Assembly (NCBI GenBank): GCA_037380845.1 | Contig: JARRRI010000051.1 | Span: 1 to 30,116, forward strand | Length of the DNA: 30,116 nucleotides | Source: Candidatus Sulfobium sp. | Lineage (GTDB): Bacteria; Nitrospirota; Thermodesulfovibrionia; Thermodesulfovibrionales; UBA6898 | Direction of reading: 5' to 3' | Part shown: positions 23,368 to 28,684 of the stretch, piece by piece | Layout of the letters: the number at the start of each line of letters is the position of its first letter | How positions within the stretch are numbered: the first letter of the stretch is position 1 | Position numbers and translations under genes: made by a program | Notes under the pieces: model-generated | Database searches by the model: none | The model's input: the letters and a program-made list of their open reading frames with translations, nothing else | Told to the model about the DNA's origin: nothing

Positions 23368-24507
23368 TCATTCTTCGTAAGCGTCCAGATCGGCTTTTGT
23401 CGAGAGATAGCCCAGTATGTCCTTCAGCGTTATCACCCCGGTCAAACGGCTTTTGTCGACGACTATCAGCCGGCTGTTTCCAGTGCTGTTCATTACGCCG
23501 AGGCACTTCGTGACGTCCATATCAGGAGTGACAGCTATCTCCCGTGAACATTGTGTGGTGATCTGGCCTACGGTGCGGTTACGCCATTCCGCGCGCGGAA
23601 TTTCCTTCAGCCGGCGTGTGGTGACGCAGCCTGATAGTTCGCCGTCGTCGACTACAGGGAACATCTTGAAATGATATTTGTAGACGTATTCTTCCACCAG
23701 GTCTTCGACCGATATCCCGGACGGTACCGTCACTACATCTTTTTTCATCAACGACTTCACCTTCTCACCCTCGAGTGCCTTGCGAATGATTATCTGCCTG
23801 TATGATGCCCGGGATGCGCCCCGGAGAAACATGCCGATCAGCACCCACCATATTCCACCGATTATGTTTCCGAAGAAGAGCACGTTTATCCCGCCGACAA
23901 TCATGAGGGCGACCCCGAAGCCGGACCCTATCTGCGAAGCGATGCGCGTTGCCCAGCGCAGGTTGTCCTTCCACTTCCAGAGGGCTGAACGGAGTACGCG
24001 GCCGCCGTCAAGCGGAAAGGCGGGAAGCAGGTTGAAACCGGCCAGCAGGAAGTTTATAAGCATGAGGTAGGCAAGAACACCGTTAACTGGAACGGGCCAT
24101 CCCGCCGCGGTTCCCATTTCATTGACAATCAGGAAAATGAAGCCCAGAAGTATACTTGATGCGGGGCCCGCTATGGCCATCAGAAACTCTACCTTTGCGT
24201 TTTCCGGCTCGTCGTCCATCTCGGCCACTCCGCCGAAAATGAAAAGGGTTATTCCCTTCATCGGGAGGCCGAATCTGCGGGCGACGAGGGAGTGACACAG
24301 TTCATGAAAGACTATGGATACAAAGAGGCTGAGCGCACCGGCTATGCCCATCCACCAATAGGTGGCTGAAGAAAGGCCTTTATACATTGAAGGGAAAAGT
24401 CCGGCGGCCAACGACCATGCTATGAGACCGGCCAGGATCAGCCAACTGGCGTCAATATGTACTTCGAACCCCACCAGCTTAAAAAGGGTGATGCGTTTTC
24501 CGAACAT
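23368..24507 (-). CDS. Site-2 (M50) metalloprotease with CBS pair
   Basis: HELCH, AIAGP, FNLLPAFPLDGGR, two C-terminal CBS domains. Confidence 0.95.
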   Translation of the reverse strand: MFGKRITLFKLVGFEVHIDASWLILAGLIAWSLAAGLFPSMYKGLSSATYWWMGIAGALSLFVSIVFHELCHSLVARRFGLPMKGITLFIFGGVAEMDDEPENAKVEFLMAIAGPASSILLGFIFLIVNEMGTAAGWPVPVNGVLAYLMLINFLLAGFNLLPAFPLDGGRVLRSALWKWKDNLRWATRIASQIGSGFGVALMIVGGINVLFFGNIIGGIWWVLIGMFLRGASRASYRQIIIRKALEGEKVKSLMKKDVVTVPSGISVEDLVEEYVYKYHFKMFPVVDDGELSGCVTTRRLKEIPRAEWRNRTVGQITTQCSREIAVTPDMDVTKCLGVMNSTGNSRLIVVDKSRLTGVITLKDILGYLSTKADLDAYEE

Positions 24508-24641: not shown

Positions 24642-25229
24642 TTACCTGAAGAGCTTAAGATATTCGCCGTAGCCTTCCTCCTGAAGTTCTTCCTTCGGAA
24701 TGAACCTGAGGGCGGCCGAGTTCATGCAGTACCTTTTTCCCGTTGGCGGCGGACCGTCGCCGAAAACATGGCCGAGATGAGAATCGCCATGCCTGCTCCT
24801 CACCTCGGTCCTCCTCGTGAAAAAGCTCCAATCGTCTTTTTCCACGATATTCCCAGGGTCGATCGGCCGCGTGAAACTCGGCCATCCGGTCCCGGAATCG
24901 TACTTGTCCAGGGAACTGAAAAGCGGTTCTCCCGACACGACGTCCACATAGATCCCTTTCCTCTTATTGTCCCAGTATTCGTTATTGAAGGCCGGTTCGG
25001 TACCGTCCTTCTGCGTGACTTTATACTGAATCGGGGTCAGTCTTTGTCTGAGTTCCTTCTCGGATGGTTTCATGAACGGCCTCCATGTTTTGCCGGTACC
25101 TTGCCGGACATTGGTCGGTGTGACCTTCCCGTCTGTCGGAACCTGTTTCTGTTCCGCGGTGACGAAGGCATACATCGCAAGCAGCAACGCTACGACGATA
25201 ACAGACAACATTTTCATATTTGCGGTCAT
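24642..25229 (-). CDS. msrB: Peptide methionine-(R)-sulfoxide reductase with signal peptide
   Basis: [23 protein letters not shown]...[20 protein letters not shown]; hydrophobic N-terminus. Confidence 0.96.
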
Positions 25230-25285
25230 TCTTTCCTCCCCATATAAAATTCTAACGTGTTCGATGCGGGAAAGTCATGAGGAGA

Positions 25286-25627
25286 TCAATGTCCTCGTTT
25301 TCCCGTCAATGTCTCTCGGTACGTCCCGGCTCTCTTGAGTATTCTCTCCATTTCCTCCACGGAAATTCTCGATCTGTCATAAATGACAGTATTGATTTCC
25401 ATAGAACCCTTCCATCCATTTGTGACATTCGAGATGCCTTTCAGCCCTGCCAGGGCCGCCCTGCCTGCGTCATATCACGAAACTCCGAAGACGGCTGTAG
25501 CCCTGTCACTCCGCGAAAATGTCTTCGCACCTTTTCCAGGAGGTGATAGTAGAAACAGCCCTGCTGCGGTCAGAGACGCGATAAAAGCCGGGATAACCGC
25601 CGATCTTATGAAATATTTACCTCCCAT
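25286..25627 (-). CDS. Candidate exported selenoprotein, mini MsrA-like/HMA-fold (Sec51)
   Basis: Hand translation MGGKYFIRSAVIPAFIASLTAAGLFLLSPPGKGAKTFSRSDRATAVFGVS-U-YDAGRAALAGLKGISNVTNGWKGSMEINTVIYDRSRISVEEMERILKRAGTYRETLTGKRGH; single in-frame TGA at 25475-25477; fills the gap between the kinase gene and msrB. Confidence 0.8.
25443..25474 (-). promoter_or_regulatory. Candidate bacterial SECIS element
   Basis: GC-rich hairpin CAGGG-CGG-CCCUG with loop 16 nt after the UGA (alternative GGCCCU-GGC-AGGGCU); G in the apical loop. Confidence 0.45.
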
Positions 25628-25634
25628 ATTTTTT

Positions 25635-25666
25635 AGTATATGACGGAAATCTCACGATTCTGTCAC
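25635..25666 (-). promoter_or_regulatory. OmpR-type direct-repeat box plus -10 element, upstream of the selenoprotein gene and msrB
   Basis: GTGACA-N5-GTGAGA-N9-TATACT. Confidence 0.65.
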
Positions 25667-25747
25667 GGGACAGCATTCATTCCTGACAGGCGGCAGGATG
25701 TTGGCGAATTTCCGGCGGGCTAAAGCGGCTGATTACGAAGTCGGCGG

Positions 25748-27232
25748 TTAACTGCCGTTTACAGGATGAACGGGCAGTGAAAAGGAGAATGTTGTCCCCA
25801 TGTGCAGTCTGCTTTTTACCTGTATCGAACTGCCATGCAGTTCCAGAATTTGTTTTGCAATGGCCAGTCCGAGACCCGAGTGCCCCGCTTTGTACCGCCT
25901 GCTTTTGTCGAGTTGGTAAAACCGTTCGAATATCCTGGGGATCTCTTCTCCGGGAATCCCAGGCCCCGTGTCGCTTATGTCCACGGTAACAACCTCTTTG
26001 GCAGGGCTGAGCACTATGCTCACCGTTCCTTCCTCAGGAGTGTGACTGAGGGCGTTATCGACCAGGTTTTCGATCACACGCTCGATCAGGCCGATATCGC
26101 CGTCGACCATCGGGACGCCTATACTTATATTGGTGATGACTCTTATTTTCTTGTCTTCGGCCCGCAACCTGAATTTCTGTATCACGTCCTGTACCAGTTC
26201 TCCCAGGTTGAACGGTTCCGGGCGGACCCGCGTATCCTGTGCCTCCAGCTTGGCAAGGTCGAACAGGTCGGAGACCAGCTTCCCGAGTCGCCTGCAATGA
26301 CTCAGGGCAGTATCAAGATATTCCTGACGTTCTTCGGGCGGGATGGCTTCGTTCTTCATAATCAGGGTTTCCAGGTATCCCTGGAGGGTGGCAAGTGGGG
26401 TGCGCAGGTCGTGGGAGACATTTGCTACCAGTTCCCTTCTCATCGAATCGGACTTCTTCATCGATTTTACCTGTGTTTCGATTCTTTGGGCCATTTCCCT
26501 GAACGTGGACACCAGCATGTCGATTTCGTCGCCTCGAGCTTCTTGTGATGATGGCAGGTCGAGGTCTGAAAGAGGAATCCCTTCCCTGTACGCTCCCATA
26601 GCCGTGGCGAGCCGTCGGAGCCTGCGAGTGAGACAGCCGAAAACGATCAATCCCGCCAGTACAGCCACCGTGAGGCTGGCGAGAATTCCCCAGATGCCGA
26701 GCCTCAGGATGTAGCTGCCCTGGAGTTTCTGCATAAGCGTGTCGTAGACCTCCCCCCCGAGGATGACATAGAGATAACCTTCCAGCTTGCCTTTTGCAGG
26801 GATGCGGGCTGCGGAAAAGATCTTTCTGCTTCCGGGGTTTCTAGGGTTGACCCCGAGGATGGGCAGGCTTTCATTTCCGGAGAGGAAACGTCTTATCGGT
26901 TCCACGTCGACATTTCTTGCCTTTATCTTGCCGGGCTCGGCGGAGAAGGCAAGAACAGACCCTTCCGGATCCAGAAGGTAGATCTCAATGCCGGGATTTA
27001 CTACCATGAGCATGTCAAAGACTTCTTCCAGAGATTTGCGGTCGATACCGTTTTTTCCGACCAGTATCTTCTGTTCCACAATGTGTCTTGCGATGTCACT
27101 GTTAAGTTTCTGGGTCACCTCCTCCTGGTACATGCCGCTCATGTAGAGGCCGATCGCAACAAAGGCCGAGCCGGCAAGAACAAAAAGGGCCAGGAGGACA
27201 GCCGCCAGCCTTGAATAAAGGGAGGAAAACAC
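25748..27232 (-). CDS. Sensor histidine kinase (2 TM, HAMP, HisKA, HATPase)
   Basis: ANVSHDLRTPL H-box, NLVDNA, DTGPGI, FERFYQ, GLGLAI. Confidence 0.96.
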   Translation of the reverse strand: MFSSLYSRLAAVLLALFVLAGSAFVAIGLYMSGMYQEEVTQKLNSDIARHIVEQKILVGKNGIDRKSLEEVFDMLMVVNPGIEIYLLDPEGSVLAFSAEPGKIKARNVDVEPIRRFLSGNESLPILGVNPRNPGSRKIFSAARIPAKGKLEGYLYVILGGEVYDTLMQKLQGSYILRLGIWGILASLTVAVLAGLIVFGCLTRRLRRLATAMGAYREGIPLSDLDLPSSQEARGDEIDMLVSTFREMAQRIETQVKSMKKSDSMRRELVANVSHDLRTPLATLQGYLETLIMKNEAIPPEERQEYLDTALSHCRRLGKLVSDLFDLAKLEAQDTRVRPEPFNLGELVQDVIQKFRLRAEDKKIRVITNISIGVPMVDGDIGLIERVIENLVDNALSHTPEEGTVSIVLSPAKEVVTVDISDTGPGIPGEEIPRIFERFYQLDKSRRYKAGHSGLGLAIAKQILELHGSSIQVKSRLHMGTTFSFSLPVHPVNGS

Positions 27233-27235
27233 TGT

Positions 27236-27952
27236 TCAGTTCCCTGCCTTCGCCGTATCCGCGAATTTGTAACCTACACCCCACACCGTAAGAATATAAT
27301 CCGGGCGCGCTGGGTTATCCTCGATCTTGGCACGCAGCCTGTTGATATGGGAATTGACCGTATGCTCGTAACCGTCATGCGAATACCCCCAGACGGCATC
27401 GAGCAGTTGAGTGCGTGTGAATACCCTGCCGCGGTTGCGGGCGAAATAAAGAAGGAGATCGAACTCTTTCGCTGTAAGTTCTATCGTCTTCCCCCGGCGA
27501 AGGACGTTTCTCCTCGTCGCGTCTATCTCAAGGTCGCCAGCTTTGATAACAGGCTCTTCGAAAGTTTGTTGCTCTTGGGCAAGCAGATCTACACGTCGCA
27601 GCAATGCCTTTACGCGTGCGATTAATTCCACAATGCTGAACGGTTTCGTCACATAATCGTCCGCCCCCATCTCCAGACCGAGCACCCTGTCAATTTCCGA
27701 GGACTTGGAGGTAAGCATCAGTATGGGGACATAGGACTGCCTTGCACGGAGCCGCCTGCAGATCTCGACTCCGTCAAGTCCGGGCAGCATGAGATCGAGG
27801 ATTATAAGGTCAAAGCGGTCCGCTTCGGCCATGGCCAGACCGGAGACGCCGTCGGCGGCAACCTCCACCTCATAGGAGAGGTCGCCGAGATGTACCCGGA
27901 GTAAACGGGCGAGGTCCCTGTTGTCTTCTATGATCAGAATGTGGCTTTTCAT
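27236..27952 (-). CDS. OmpR/PhoB-family response regulator
   Basis: IIEDN, LDLMLPG, GADDYVTKPF, winged helix LTAKEFDLL...TVWGVGYKF. Confidence 0.97.
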   Translation of the reverse strand: MKSHILIIEDNRDLARLLRVHLGDLSYEVEVAADGVSGLAMAEADRFDLIILDLMLPGLDGVEICRRLRARQSYVPILMLTSKSSEIDRVLGLEMGADDYVTKPFSIVELIARVKALLRRVDLLAQEQQTFEEPVIKAGDLEIDATRRNVLRRGKTIELTAKEFDLLLYFARNRGRVFTRTQLLDAVWGYSHDGYEHTVNSHINRLRAKIEDNPARPDYILTVWGVGYKFADTAKAGN

Positions 27953-28081: not shown

Positions 28082-28684
28082 TTATACCTGACTGGAAGAC
28101 CCGAGGCTTCTTCCGTCCCGGAGAAATCTGAGAAACAGGTAGCCCGTGGCAGAACTCACGAACGCCAGAATCCCCCAGAATACTATCTGTGAAGTGTTAA
28201 TGCCTATATCTCTTAACCCATGCCCGCCTGCGTATCCTATTGATACAAGTGCGGCAATGGTGAAAGTGACAGCAAAGGCATCAGCCAGGACGAATTTAAG
28301 GCGGTTCATCTTCATGATGCCCGACACGAGGAAGATCTGGGCTCTCAAGCCGATAAATTGTCTGCCGAACAGAACAAAGAAGACCCCCTTCCTCTCGAAC
28401 GTCTTTTCGAGCGAGTCCAGCTTGTCCCGGGATAAAAATCTCCTGAACCATCTGTGGCAGACGACCATGCGACCATATTTTCGTCCGAAAGAATAGATAA
28501 TGAAGTCCGCTATGAGCACCCCCACATAAACAACCAGCAAGGCTGGAATGACTTTAACGATGTCCTGACGAATCAGAAATCCGCAAAGAATCAATGTCGC
28601 GTCTTCAGGGAACAGTGGAACACCGAGCCCTCCGAGAATGAGTGGGGCAAAAAGACCAAGGTATGGGAAATTTCCGAGAAACAT
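28082..28684 (-). CDS. DedA-family membrane protein
   Basis: GLGVPLFPEDATLILCG, ADFIIYSFGRKYG, FGRQFIGLR. Confidence 0.9.
   Translation of the reverse strand: MFLGNFPYLGLFAPLILGGLGVPLFPEDATLILCGFLIRQDIVKVIPALLVVYVGVLIADFIIYSFGRKYGRMVVCHRWFRRFLSRDKLDSLEKTFERKGVFFVLFGRQFIGLRAQIFLVSGIMKMNRLKFVLADAFAVTFTIAALVSIGYAGGHGLRDIGINTSQIVFWGILAFVSSATGYLFLRFLRDGRSLGSSSQV

Follow-up and report, generated by a model that had tools for sequence, protein, structure and literature searches.

A putative exported single-selenocysteine protein family with a predicted HMA/MsrA-like fold, encoded beside methionine sulfoxide reductase genes

The split frame and its TGA/Cys column

The window, that is the whole stretch of DNA analysed here, comprises 30,116 nucleotides of Candidatus Sulfobium sp. 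(Nitrospirota; assembly GCA_037380845.1, contig JARRRI010000051.1). Its minus strand carries at 25286..25627 a frame that is interrupted by one TGA codon and lies directly upstream of a gene for an exported methionine sulfoxide reductase B (MsrB). We read this frame as one selenoprotein gene, in which UGA-51 would be decoded as selenocysteine (Sec). It appears to represent a new selenoprotein family on a known fold, encoded beside Msr repair genes in many anaerobic bacteria. The features of the gene itself are as follows.

25286..25627, minus strand: putative exported selenoprotein gene, 113 sense codons and a terminal TGA at 25286-25288; assigned from orthologs
25475..25477, minus strand: UGA codon 51, read as Sec, local motif S-U-Y-D; assigned from the TGA/Cys column among relatives
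25442..25458, minus strand: hairpin resembling a selenocysteine insertion sequence (SECIS), stem 25452-25458 with 25442-25448, apical loop 25449-25451
25526..25627, minus strand: N-terminal export segment, residues 1-34, a basic n-region and then a hydrophobic stretch, delimited by eye
25310..25504, minus strand: folded domain, residues 42-106, predicted beta1-(Sec loop)-alpha1-beta2-beta3-alpha2-beta4

ATG 25627 opens the frame, and exactly one internal stop follows, TGA 25475-25477. An earlier sequence-only reading had claimed that a single TGA splits a 113-aa frame on this strand, and this is confirmed, with the TGA as codon 51. The list of open reading frames made under translation table 11 holds only the 50-aa N-terminal piece (25475..25627). 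ATG 25627 is the sole canonical in-frame start and has no Shine-Dalgarno sequence upstream. The start is uncertain: GGGAGG at 25624-25619 lies just 3' of this ATG, and ATA 25609-25607 aligns with the ATG of a same-genus ortholog (L010), 4 nt behind a GGAGG. Two runs of a separate study gave contigs that cover the gene (X9, 25154-25726, and X10, 25150-25667) with 0 differences to the window; since these independent contigs carry the TGA, it is not an assembly artefact. The hydrophobic N-terminus described in the same reading is also present, as a basic stretch followed by hydrophobic residues at about 9-27. The AlphaFold2 predicted local distance difference test (pLDDT) score of this segment is below 50, and orthologs show A-x-A-like cleavage sites, for example VSLA/QD and VFA/EN. 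The segment is probably a signal peptide or signal anchor, suggesting export of the protein.

Relatives were collected by six-frame searches that read through stops. The same frame with TGA at the same column occurs in 5 other genomes among 61 relatives (E 1e-42 to 1e-13). A profile search matches 37 of 401 genomes sampled from the phylum at E <= 1e-5, and a scan of one genome per species gives 61 loci, in records titled Nitrospirota/Thermodesulfovibrionia and several Desulfobacterota orders. After removal of duplicates, the set has 69 unique members, leaving out rows L100 and L040 (TGA forms), L116 and L101, and in these the Sec column was read at the DNA level. It is TGA in 56, TGT or TGC (Cys) in 12, CGC (Arg) in one and TGG in none. 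Conservation extends over both sides of the column, with the family motif F-x-V-x-U-[YF]-D-V-G-K...G-[FW]...E-I-N-T-V-x-Y-D-P...M-E-x-A-L-K-x-A-G-T-Y. Homologs with TGA or Cys at this column and conserved flanks were what the sequence-only reading had asked for. In an alignment of 43 Cys forms, the Cys column and Glu84 are invariant. Metagenome contigs searched with the TGA pattern give at least 120 matches, and 116 of the 120 listed are relatives by the family hidden Markov model. The same pattern with Trp as TGG gives 59 matches, with 0 relatives among them.

Protein databases show the same family in altered form. A library search finds 280 representative clusters at E up to 0.001, of which 150 are listed. 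By a rough script, 39 of the 150 are Cys forms, 57 are C-terminal fragments starting just past the Sec column, and at least 18 have Trp at the column; other classes (V/I/S/T/D/A/E) from this script are probably mis-registered and are not relied on. The fragment records are what table 11 makes of TGA forms. Three of the Trp forms were looked up; they lie on contigs of 577-1052 bases, and one is 62/66 identical to a TGA locus. The most plausible account of the Trp forms is a gene call with a code-4-type table that turns TGA into Trp, because the TGG pattern finds no relatives at all while nearly all listed matches to the TGA pattern are relatives.

It is highly improbable that the gene is broken by a nonsense mutation or that its TGA means Trp under another code, and both readings were rejected, being contradicted by the TGA, Cys and TGG counts. 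They could draw on the frame that table 11 splits, on the Trp representatives and on the one paralog with Arg at the column (L026). However, TGA is kept in 56/69 members across Nitrospirota and Desulfobacterota-titled records with both flanks conserved, Cys takes its place in 12, and the Trp forms that were looked up sit on contigs of about 1 kb or less. The sequence-only reading had named Trp in homologs as the mark of a simple nonsense mutation; by DNA no Trp homolog is found, neither among the 69 genome loci nor among the TGG-pattern matches. The window gene itself also ends in TGA, where its orthologs have TAA or TAG at the same place.

In marsh metagenomes, two short contigs of other organisms (X13 record 8 and X1 record 2) match only the hairpin stretch 25433-25465, with 3 differences and at a depth greater than that of the window's own contig. 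On the gene's strand, X13 record 8 continues at its loose end with TGA-TAC-GAT-GTG, and the same marsh samples therefore contain relatives of the gene.

The hairpin after the UGA and the selenocysteine machinery

A GC-rich hairpin at SECIS-like distance had been noted from the sequence, and it is indeed present. Counted from the U of the UGA, the pairs are C20-G36, G21-U35, G22-C34, C23-G33, C24-G32, C25-G31 and U26-A30 (window 25458-25442), and the stem starts 19 nt after the UGA. Across relatives, the hairpin has 4-7 bp and lies 19-20 nt past the UGA. The loop U-G-G-A/C-A starts after 22-23 nt and reads UGGCA in the window and UGGAA in most relatives. The description used by bSECISearch reportedly asks for 16-37 nt from the UGA to the apical loop and a G in the loop.

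The comparison of TGA and Cys forms carries the evidence for this element. The four core pairs (nt 22-25 with 31-34) are all canonical in 55/56 TGA forms, versus 4/12 Cys forms, and the peptide encoded at the hairpin is nearly alike in both classes, AALEGL in TGA forms and AALQGL in Cys forms. At pair 25-31, U-A replaces C-G in seven sequences. In the 56-row alignment 88.2% of the cells are paired, and shifting the 3' partner lowers this share to 62.7% or less. Changes on both sides occur in 3 of the 7 pairs, and the covariation score is reached by 0 of 500 shuffles, a significance that the shuffles overstate as the rows are related sequences. Among the metagenome TGA forms in the matches listed, the core is canonical in 96 of 110 unique sequences. 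The folding energy of the single window sequence is unremarkable (z -0.70; 44 of 200 shuffles fold as well), and the hairpin is therefore evidence only through the comparison of relatives. Minimum free energies over 54 nt do not separate the classes (means -12.8 for TGA forms versus -11.5 for Cys forms, Mann-Whitney p 0.13), so that only the position-specific stem distinguishes TGA from Cys forms. No SECIS family of Rfam is matched, the three matches listed having E 3.7-8.3.

The genome of the window encodes the Sec machinery that the sequence-only reading had proposed to look for. It has selA (620 bits), selB (332 bits), selD (215 bits, with a TGA of its own) and tRNA-SeC(tca), the selC product. 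The selD gene (L132, C20:72213-72722, plus strand) has its in-frame TGA followed by a short hairpin. The same genome also carries a thioredoxin-like (Trx-like) T-P-G-U selenoprotein gene (L058, C7:35813-35992, minus strand), in which a G+C stem with the loop UGGAG lies at a similar distance after the UGA.

Two divergent copies were also seen. The Arg paralog (L026:433-753, minus strand), a second copy in genome G012, reads G-V-S-R-S-D, has no hairpin and adjoins a histidine-specific S-adenosylmethionine-dependent methyltransferase (PF10017) with no Msr gene; the redox residue may have been lost in this member of the family. L050 (genome G395) has an upstream TAG with no start codon after it and has lost the hairpin (AAUCUUAGAAGGGCU), and is possibly a decaying copy.

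Predicted fold and relation to MsrA and HMA domains

AlphaFold2 with 32 alignment rows predicts the mature domain of about 65 aa with block-mean pLDDT of 94-97 over residues 41-100. The predicted elements are beta1 42-49, helix 52-59, beta2 65-73, beta3 76-84, helix 90-100 and beta4 103-106. This beta-alpha-beta-beta-alpha-beta order agrees with the HMA-like fold suggested from the sequence. Sec51 sits between beta1 and helix 1 in the model, and the protein ends a few residues past beta4. The topology of the fold should bring the near-invariant residues Tyr/Phe52, Asp53 and Glu77 to the Sec end of the sheet; Glu77 is near-invariant in the 32-row alignment and corresponds to the invariant Glu84 of the Cys forms. 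There is a single Sec or Cys per protein, and the second position of a CxxC motif is Val in TGA forms and mostly Glu in Cys forms. No conserved His, Met or Cys is found beside the Sec; the conserved neighbors are Tyr/Phe, Asp and Glu.

Profile comparison brings the family close to MsrA. The alignment of 43 Cys forms with the adjacent MsrAB proteins by hhalign reaches 97.2% (E 4e-11, 65 columns), although the score may come in part from similar export and mature N-terminal segments of these exported neighbors. Compared with one single MsrA, the value is 57%. In both alignments the family Cys falls on the catalytic Cys of GCFWC, which bears out the earlier placement of the UGA on the MsrA catalytic position. 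The sequence-only reading had also remarked that the NPTY insert and the C-terminal half of MsrA are absent, and accordingly hhalign opens a gap of 17 residues at the NPTY-containing insert of MsrA and stops at about column 102 of 376. Foldseek with the predicted model places MsrA chains among the top matches, with a root mean square deviation of 1.5 over 74 columns. Against the HMA domains of P-type ATPases from relatives, hhalign gives 95.5% (E 1.6e-8, 47 columns) with the Cys loop left out, while the control comparison of HMA with MsrAB gives only 17%. A profile search of the PDB has MerP as the best sequence match (E 9.7e-4) and MsrA chains only at E 0.6-2.5. Pfam searched at E up to 10 gives no family, including PF01625 and PF00403. 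NCBIfam gives only sub-threshold matches (NF041383, NF041115, MerTP and CopZ), and the Cys forms behave alike.

The family thus resembles two known groups and differs from each in the features that define it. With MsrA (PF01625), it shares the 65 columns over the N-terminal half, the Sec or Cys at the catalytic position and a gene position beside msrA, msrB or msrAB. MsrA has the motif GCFWG or GUFWG, in contrast to U-[YF]-D-V-G-K here, and the family lacks the insert of about 17 residues and the whole C-terminal half that holds the rest of the sulfoxide pocket. With the HMA proteins (PF00403: MerP, CopZ and the N-terminal domains of CopA), it shares the reactive residue at the first Cys of CxxC, and MerP is also exported. 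Unlike them, it has one Sec or Cys only, and its neighborhood contains Msr genes and no mer or cop pumps. The family stands between MsrA and HMA and is a member of neither, because it has no second Cys and no MsrA C-terminal half.

Two curated selenoprotein models come nearest. The UxxU metal-binding (seleno)protein model NF041115 also describes a small, HMA-like protein and is matched weakly (15-23 bits, E 0.021 to 6e-5), far from its cut-off of 95 bits; it has two Sec in UxxU, while the present family has one and no partner residue. The best curated match is NF041383 (VPGUxxT Trx-like type 2), where residues 39-107 align to positions 142-210 of 287 with E 5.8e-9 (6.8e-12 with a Cys form). 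The scores of 36-46 bits compare with a cut-off of 275, and only the middle of the model (positions of about 118-210) is matched; the family has no Trx part. Positions 139-231 of NF041383 also match the true exported MsrA proteins of the genome (L059 and L060), and so this middle stretch itself looks MsrA-like. True NF041383 members number 0 in 301 genomes of the phylum. The two MsrA genes, each for an exported 201-aa protein with GCFWC, lie elsewhere in the genome (L059:1291-1896 and L060:1291-1896, both minus strand; contigs C59 and C17).

Other searches gave little. A protein-cluster search with a natural Cys form (P0002) returned its own unnamed cluster and, as a lead only, an HMA-bearing cluster at 0.79. 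Neither a word-indexed protein search with the read-through protein, at near lengths, nor one with the family alignment, at longer lengths, returned any match, which is weak evidence that fused forms of the family do not occur.

We find no earlier description of the family. No NCBIfam selenoprotein model (June 2026 release) is matched above its cut-off. None of the 119 prokaryotic selenoprotein families in Table 1 of PMC13188914 fits an exported HMA/MsrA-like protein with a single Sec; the nearest entries in that table are MsrA itself, whose Sec form is thereby an accepted selenoprotein, and the UxxU metal-binding protein. In passages of the deep-Sep, Global Ocean Sampling (GOS) and Haft papers (PMC12013277, PMC2398784, bioRxiv 2022.07.06.499078) the family is not mentioned, and the GOS survey does list a 'Mercuric transport protein MerP' among its selenoprotein families (PMC2398784). 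No paper describing the family was found in the literature searched, though the supplementary tables of these papers could hold it.

Gene neighborhood and possible function

The neighboring genes of the window lie on the same strand, in the order VTT/DedA protein, response regulator, histidine kinase, selenoprotein gene, msrB and M50/CBS protease.

28082..28684, minus strand: VTT/DedA-family membrane protein, upstream
27236..27952, minus strand: OmpR-type response regulator, first gene of the apparent string of response regulator, histidine kinase, selenoprotein gene and msrB
25748..27232, minus strand: sensor histidine kinase (HAMP, HisKA, HATPase_c), directly upstream of the selenoprotein gene
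24642..25229, minus strand: exported MsrB, 195 aa (PF01641, TIGR00357)
23368-24507, minus strand: M50/CBS protease, after msrB

The msrB gene that the sequence-only reading placed downstream is there (PF01641 E 1.1e-47, TIGR00357 E 2.9e-61) and begins 56 nt 3' of the selenoprotein gene. Neighbors were compared at the 69 unique loci over 1.5-3 kb on each side by clustering and Pfam. Clustering finds Msr genes at 40 loci (29/56 TGA forms and 11/12 Cys forms); it missed the msrB of the window itself owing to a shadow reading frame, and the linkage is therefore at least 41/69. Of the Msr genes, 45/49 are on the same strand, at a median position of 788 nt downstream. At some Cys-form loci msrAB starts 6 nt past the stop codon or overlaps it. 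An apparent second Sec after some Cys forms ('...KERN-U-PCL...') was rejected; the codon is a stop, with the msrAB start 6 nt later. The A domain keeps its C-x-x-C in all 24 MsrAB fusions, and the B domain has only the catalytic Cys. Among the 12 stand-alone MsrB proteins, 6 have a single Cys, and in the other 6 the only further Cys residues form two CxxC pairs of Zn-site type. The window MsrB has one Cys (RYCMNS), with neither Zn-site CxxC pairs nor a resolving Cys.

Kinases of one BLAST cluster lie upstream at 26/69 loci, and the only full-length NCBIfam match of the kinase is a heavy-metal sensor kinase (184 bits versus a cut-off of 292). Molybdenum oxidoreductases occur at 16 loci, VTT proteins at 10, some of them fused to a pyridine-nucleotide disulfide oxidoreductase, and cytochrome b561 at 5. 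YHS proteins occur at 11 loci and reach the NF041384 YHS (seleno)protein model with 172.8 bits; the YHS gene is directly downstream of many TGA forms (L106:3270-3752, plus strand, and 10 other loci), which would put two selenoprotein-family genes side by side. In L036, L037, L040, L044 and L047 the gene has as neighbors exported proteins of 92-167 aa that contain 14-21% Met and match no Pfam family; they recall Met-rich oxidant sinks or Cu(I) binders.

MsrB enzymes with only one Cys need an external reductant. Because the neighboring MsrB domains have only the catalytic Cys, we propose that the protein works in the periplasm as a selenol or thiol partner of the exported Msr enzymes and resolves 1-Cys MsrB in trans, with a probability of about one half. 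UGA-51 would be read as Sec with the help of the short hairpin 19-20 nt downstream, bound by SelB of the genome. After export, the domain of about 65 residues would take the fold common to HMA metallochaperones and the MsrA core, with the lone Sec at the N-terminus of helix 1, where MsrA has its catalytic Cys and HMA domains have the first Cys of CxxC. The selenol (thiol in Cys forms) would attack the sulfenic acid or disulfide of Msr in trans, and the Se-S bond formed would then be resolved by a further reductant. The protein would in this way supply the resolving or recycling residue that the neighboring Msr enzymes lack. In a weaker version of this proposal, the mini-domain would itself reduce sulfoxides directly. 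Comparable in function only are the PilB and MsrP-MrpX systems, in which a small exported redox protein is encoded together with an exported Msr. In Neisseria PilB, an N-terminal Trx-like module is said to recycle the periplasmic Msr. The MrpX/MsrP pair reportedly combines a Met-rich peptide with MsrP in defence (PMC4436054). The present family differs from these in having a predicted fold that is not thioredoxin and a single redox residue.

Several points weigh against a role as Msr partner. On its own, one Sec cannot complete a two-electron cycle, and the analysis turned up no reductant for the proposed Se-S intermediate. At 28/69 loci no Msr gene lies within 1.5-3 kb, and such loci have YHS (seleno)proteins (11 loci), Met-rich proteins, a multicopper oxidase and molybdenum oxidoreductases, neighbors that fit copper handling as well as oxidant defence. 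The two other exported MsrA genes of this genome have no such selenoprotein partner. Glu77 is aligned with the catalytic Glu of MsrA in one hhalign comparison but not in the other, depending on where the gap is placed. As no Pfam or NCBIfam family takes in the protein, its function cannot be transferred by membership. No RNA run is found among the sequencing runs listed as holding the stretch. A complex prediction of a Cys form with the adjacent MsrAB scores 0.00 and speaks neither for nor against binding.

The main rival reading is a periplasmic metallochaperone of HMA type, in which one Sec and a second ligand from a dimer mate or partner would bind Cu(I) or another soft metal, co-regulated with Msr because metal stress oxidises periplasmic Met residues. 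MerP as the best PDB sequence match, the HMA-like predicted structure, the weak matches to UxxU_metal_bind, MerTP and CopZ models and the IMG label 'copper chaperone CopZ' on some Cys forms all point this way, and so do the YHS, Met-rich and multicopper oxidase neighbors and the sub-cut-off heavy-metal match of the kinase. In E. coli, HprSR, MsrPQ and CusF are reportedly connected with one another and with copper stress (PMC9302797). We nevertheless consider a metallochaperone unlikely. The two-Cys motif GMxCxxC is absent, with one Sec or Cys and Val or Glu at the second position, no conserved His, Met or Cys stands beside the Sec, and Pfam HMA is not matched even at E 10. The commonest and tightest neighbor is Msr and not a metal pump, and by profile the family is closer to MsrA, in an alignment that takes in the Cys loop left out with HMA. 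Rather improbable is an oxidant sensor or scavenger, in which HOCl, H2O2 or O2 would oxidise the very reactive selenol; the protein would then signal to the neighboring kinase at its periplasmic domain, or serve as a sink that can be regenerated. Its place between a kinase and msr on one strand, in the window and at 26/69 loci, suits such a role, and Met-rich exported neighbors at several loci recall the hypochlorite defence described for a Met-rich peptide and a periplasmic Msr (PMC4436054). Yet nothing indicates that the protein touches the kinase, at many loci with an Msr neighbor the flank contains no kinase, and one Sec per 8-kDa protein would be a costly, stoichiometric scavenger. The sensor or scavenger overlaps with the proposed Msr partner, which it does not exclude, and with the metal chaperone too.

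Current annotation misses or garbles the gene, with Cys forms called 'hypothetical' or 'CopZ', and a curated family model would mend the records of the 280 representative clusters and of the at least 120 metagenome matches to the TGA pattern. Where exported MsrA or MsrB would be recycled with no thioredoxin-like partner nearby, the protein offers a concrete, testable candidate. It is doubtful that the family is both a minimal form linking the HMA fold to the MsrA core and the missing thioredoxin-independent periplasmic reductant of exported 1-Cys MsrB and MsrAB in anaerobes; if true, the family would be a surviving minimal link between the HMA metallochaperone fold and the MsrA catalytic core. 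As a bridge, it may help to trace where the MsrA fold came from, because it scores with both MsrA and HMA, which barely see each other.

Among the VTT fusions, the one at L121:2053-3771 (plus strand) joins a VTT domain to a pyridine-nucleotide disulfide oxidoreductase (PF07992). A fusion of this type is a conceivable route for reducing power.

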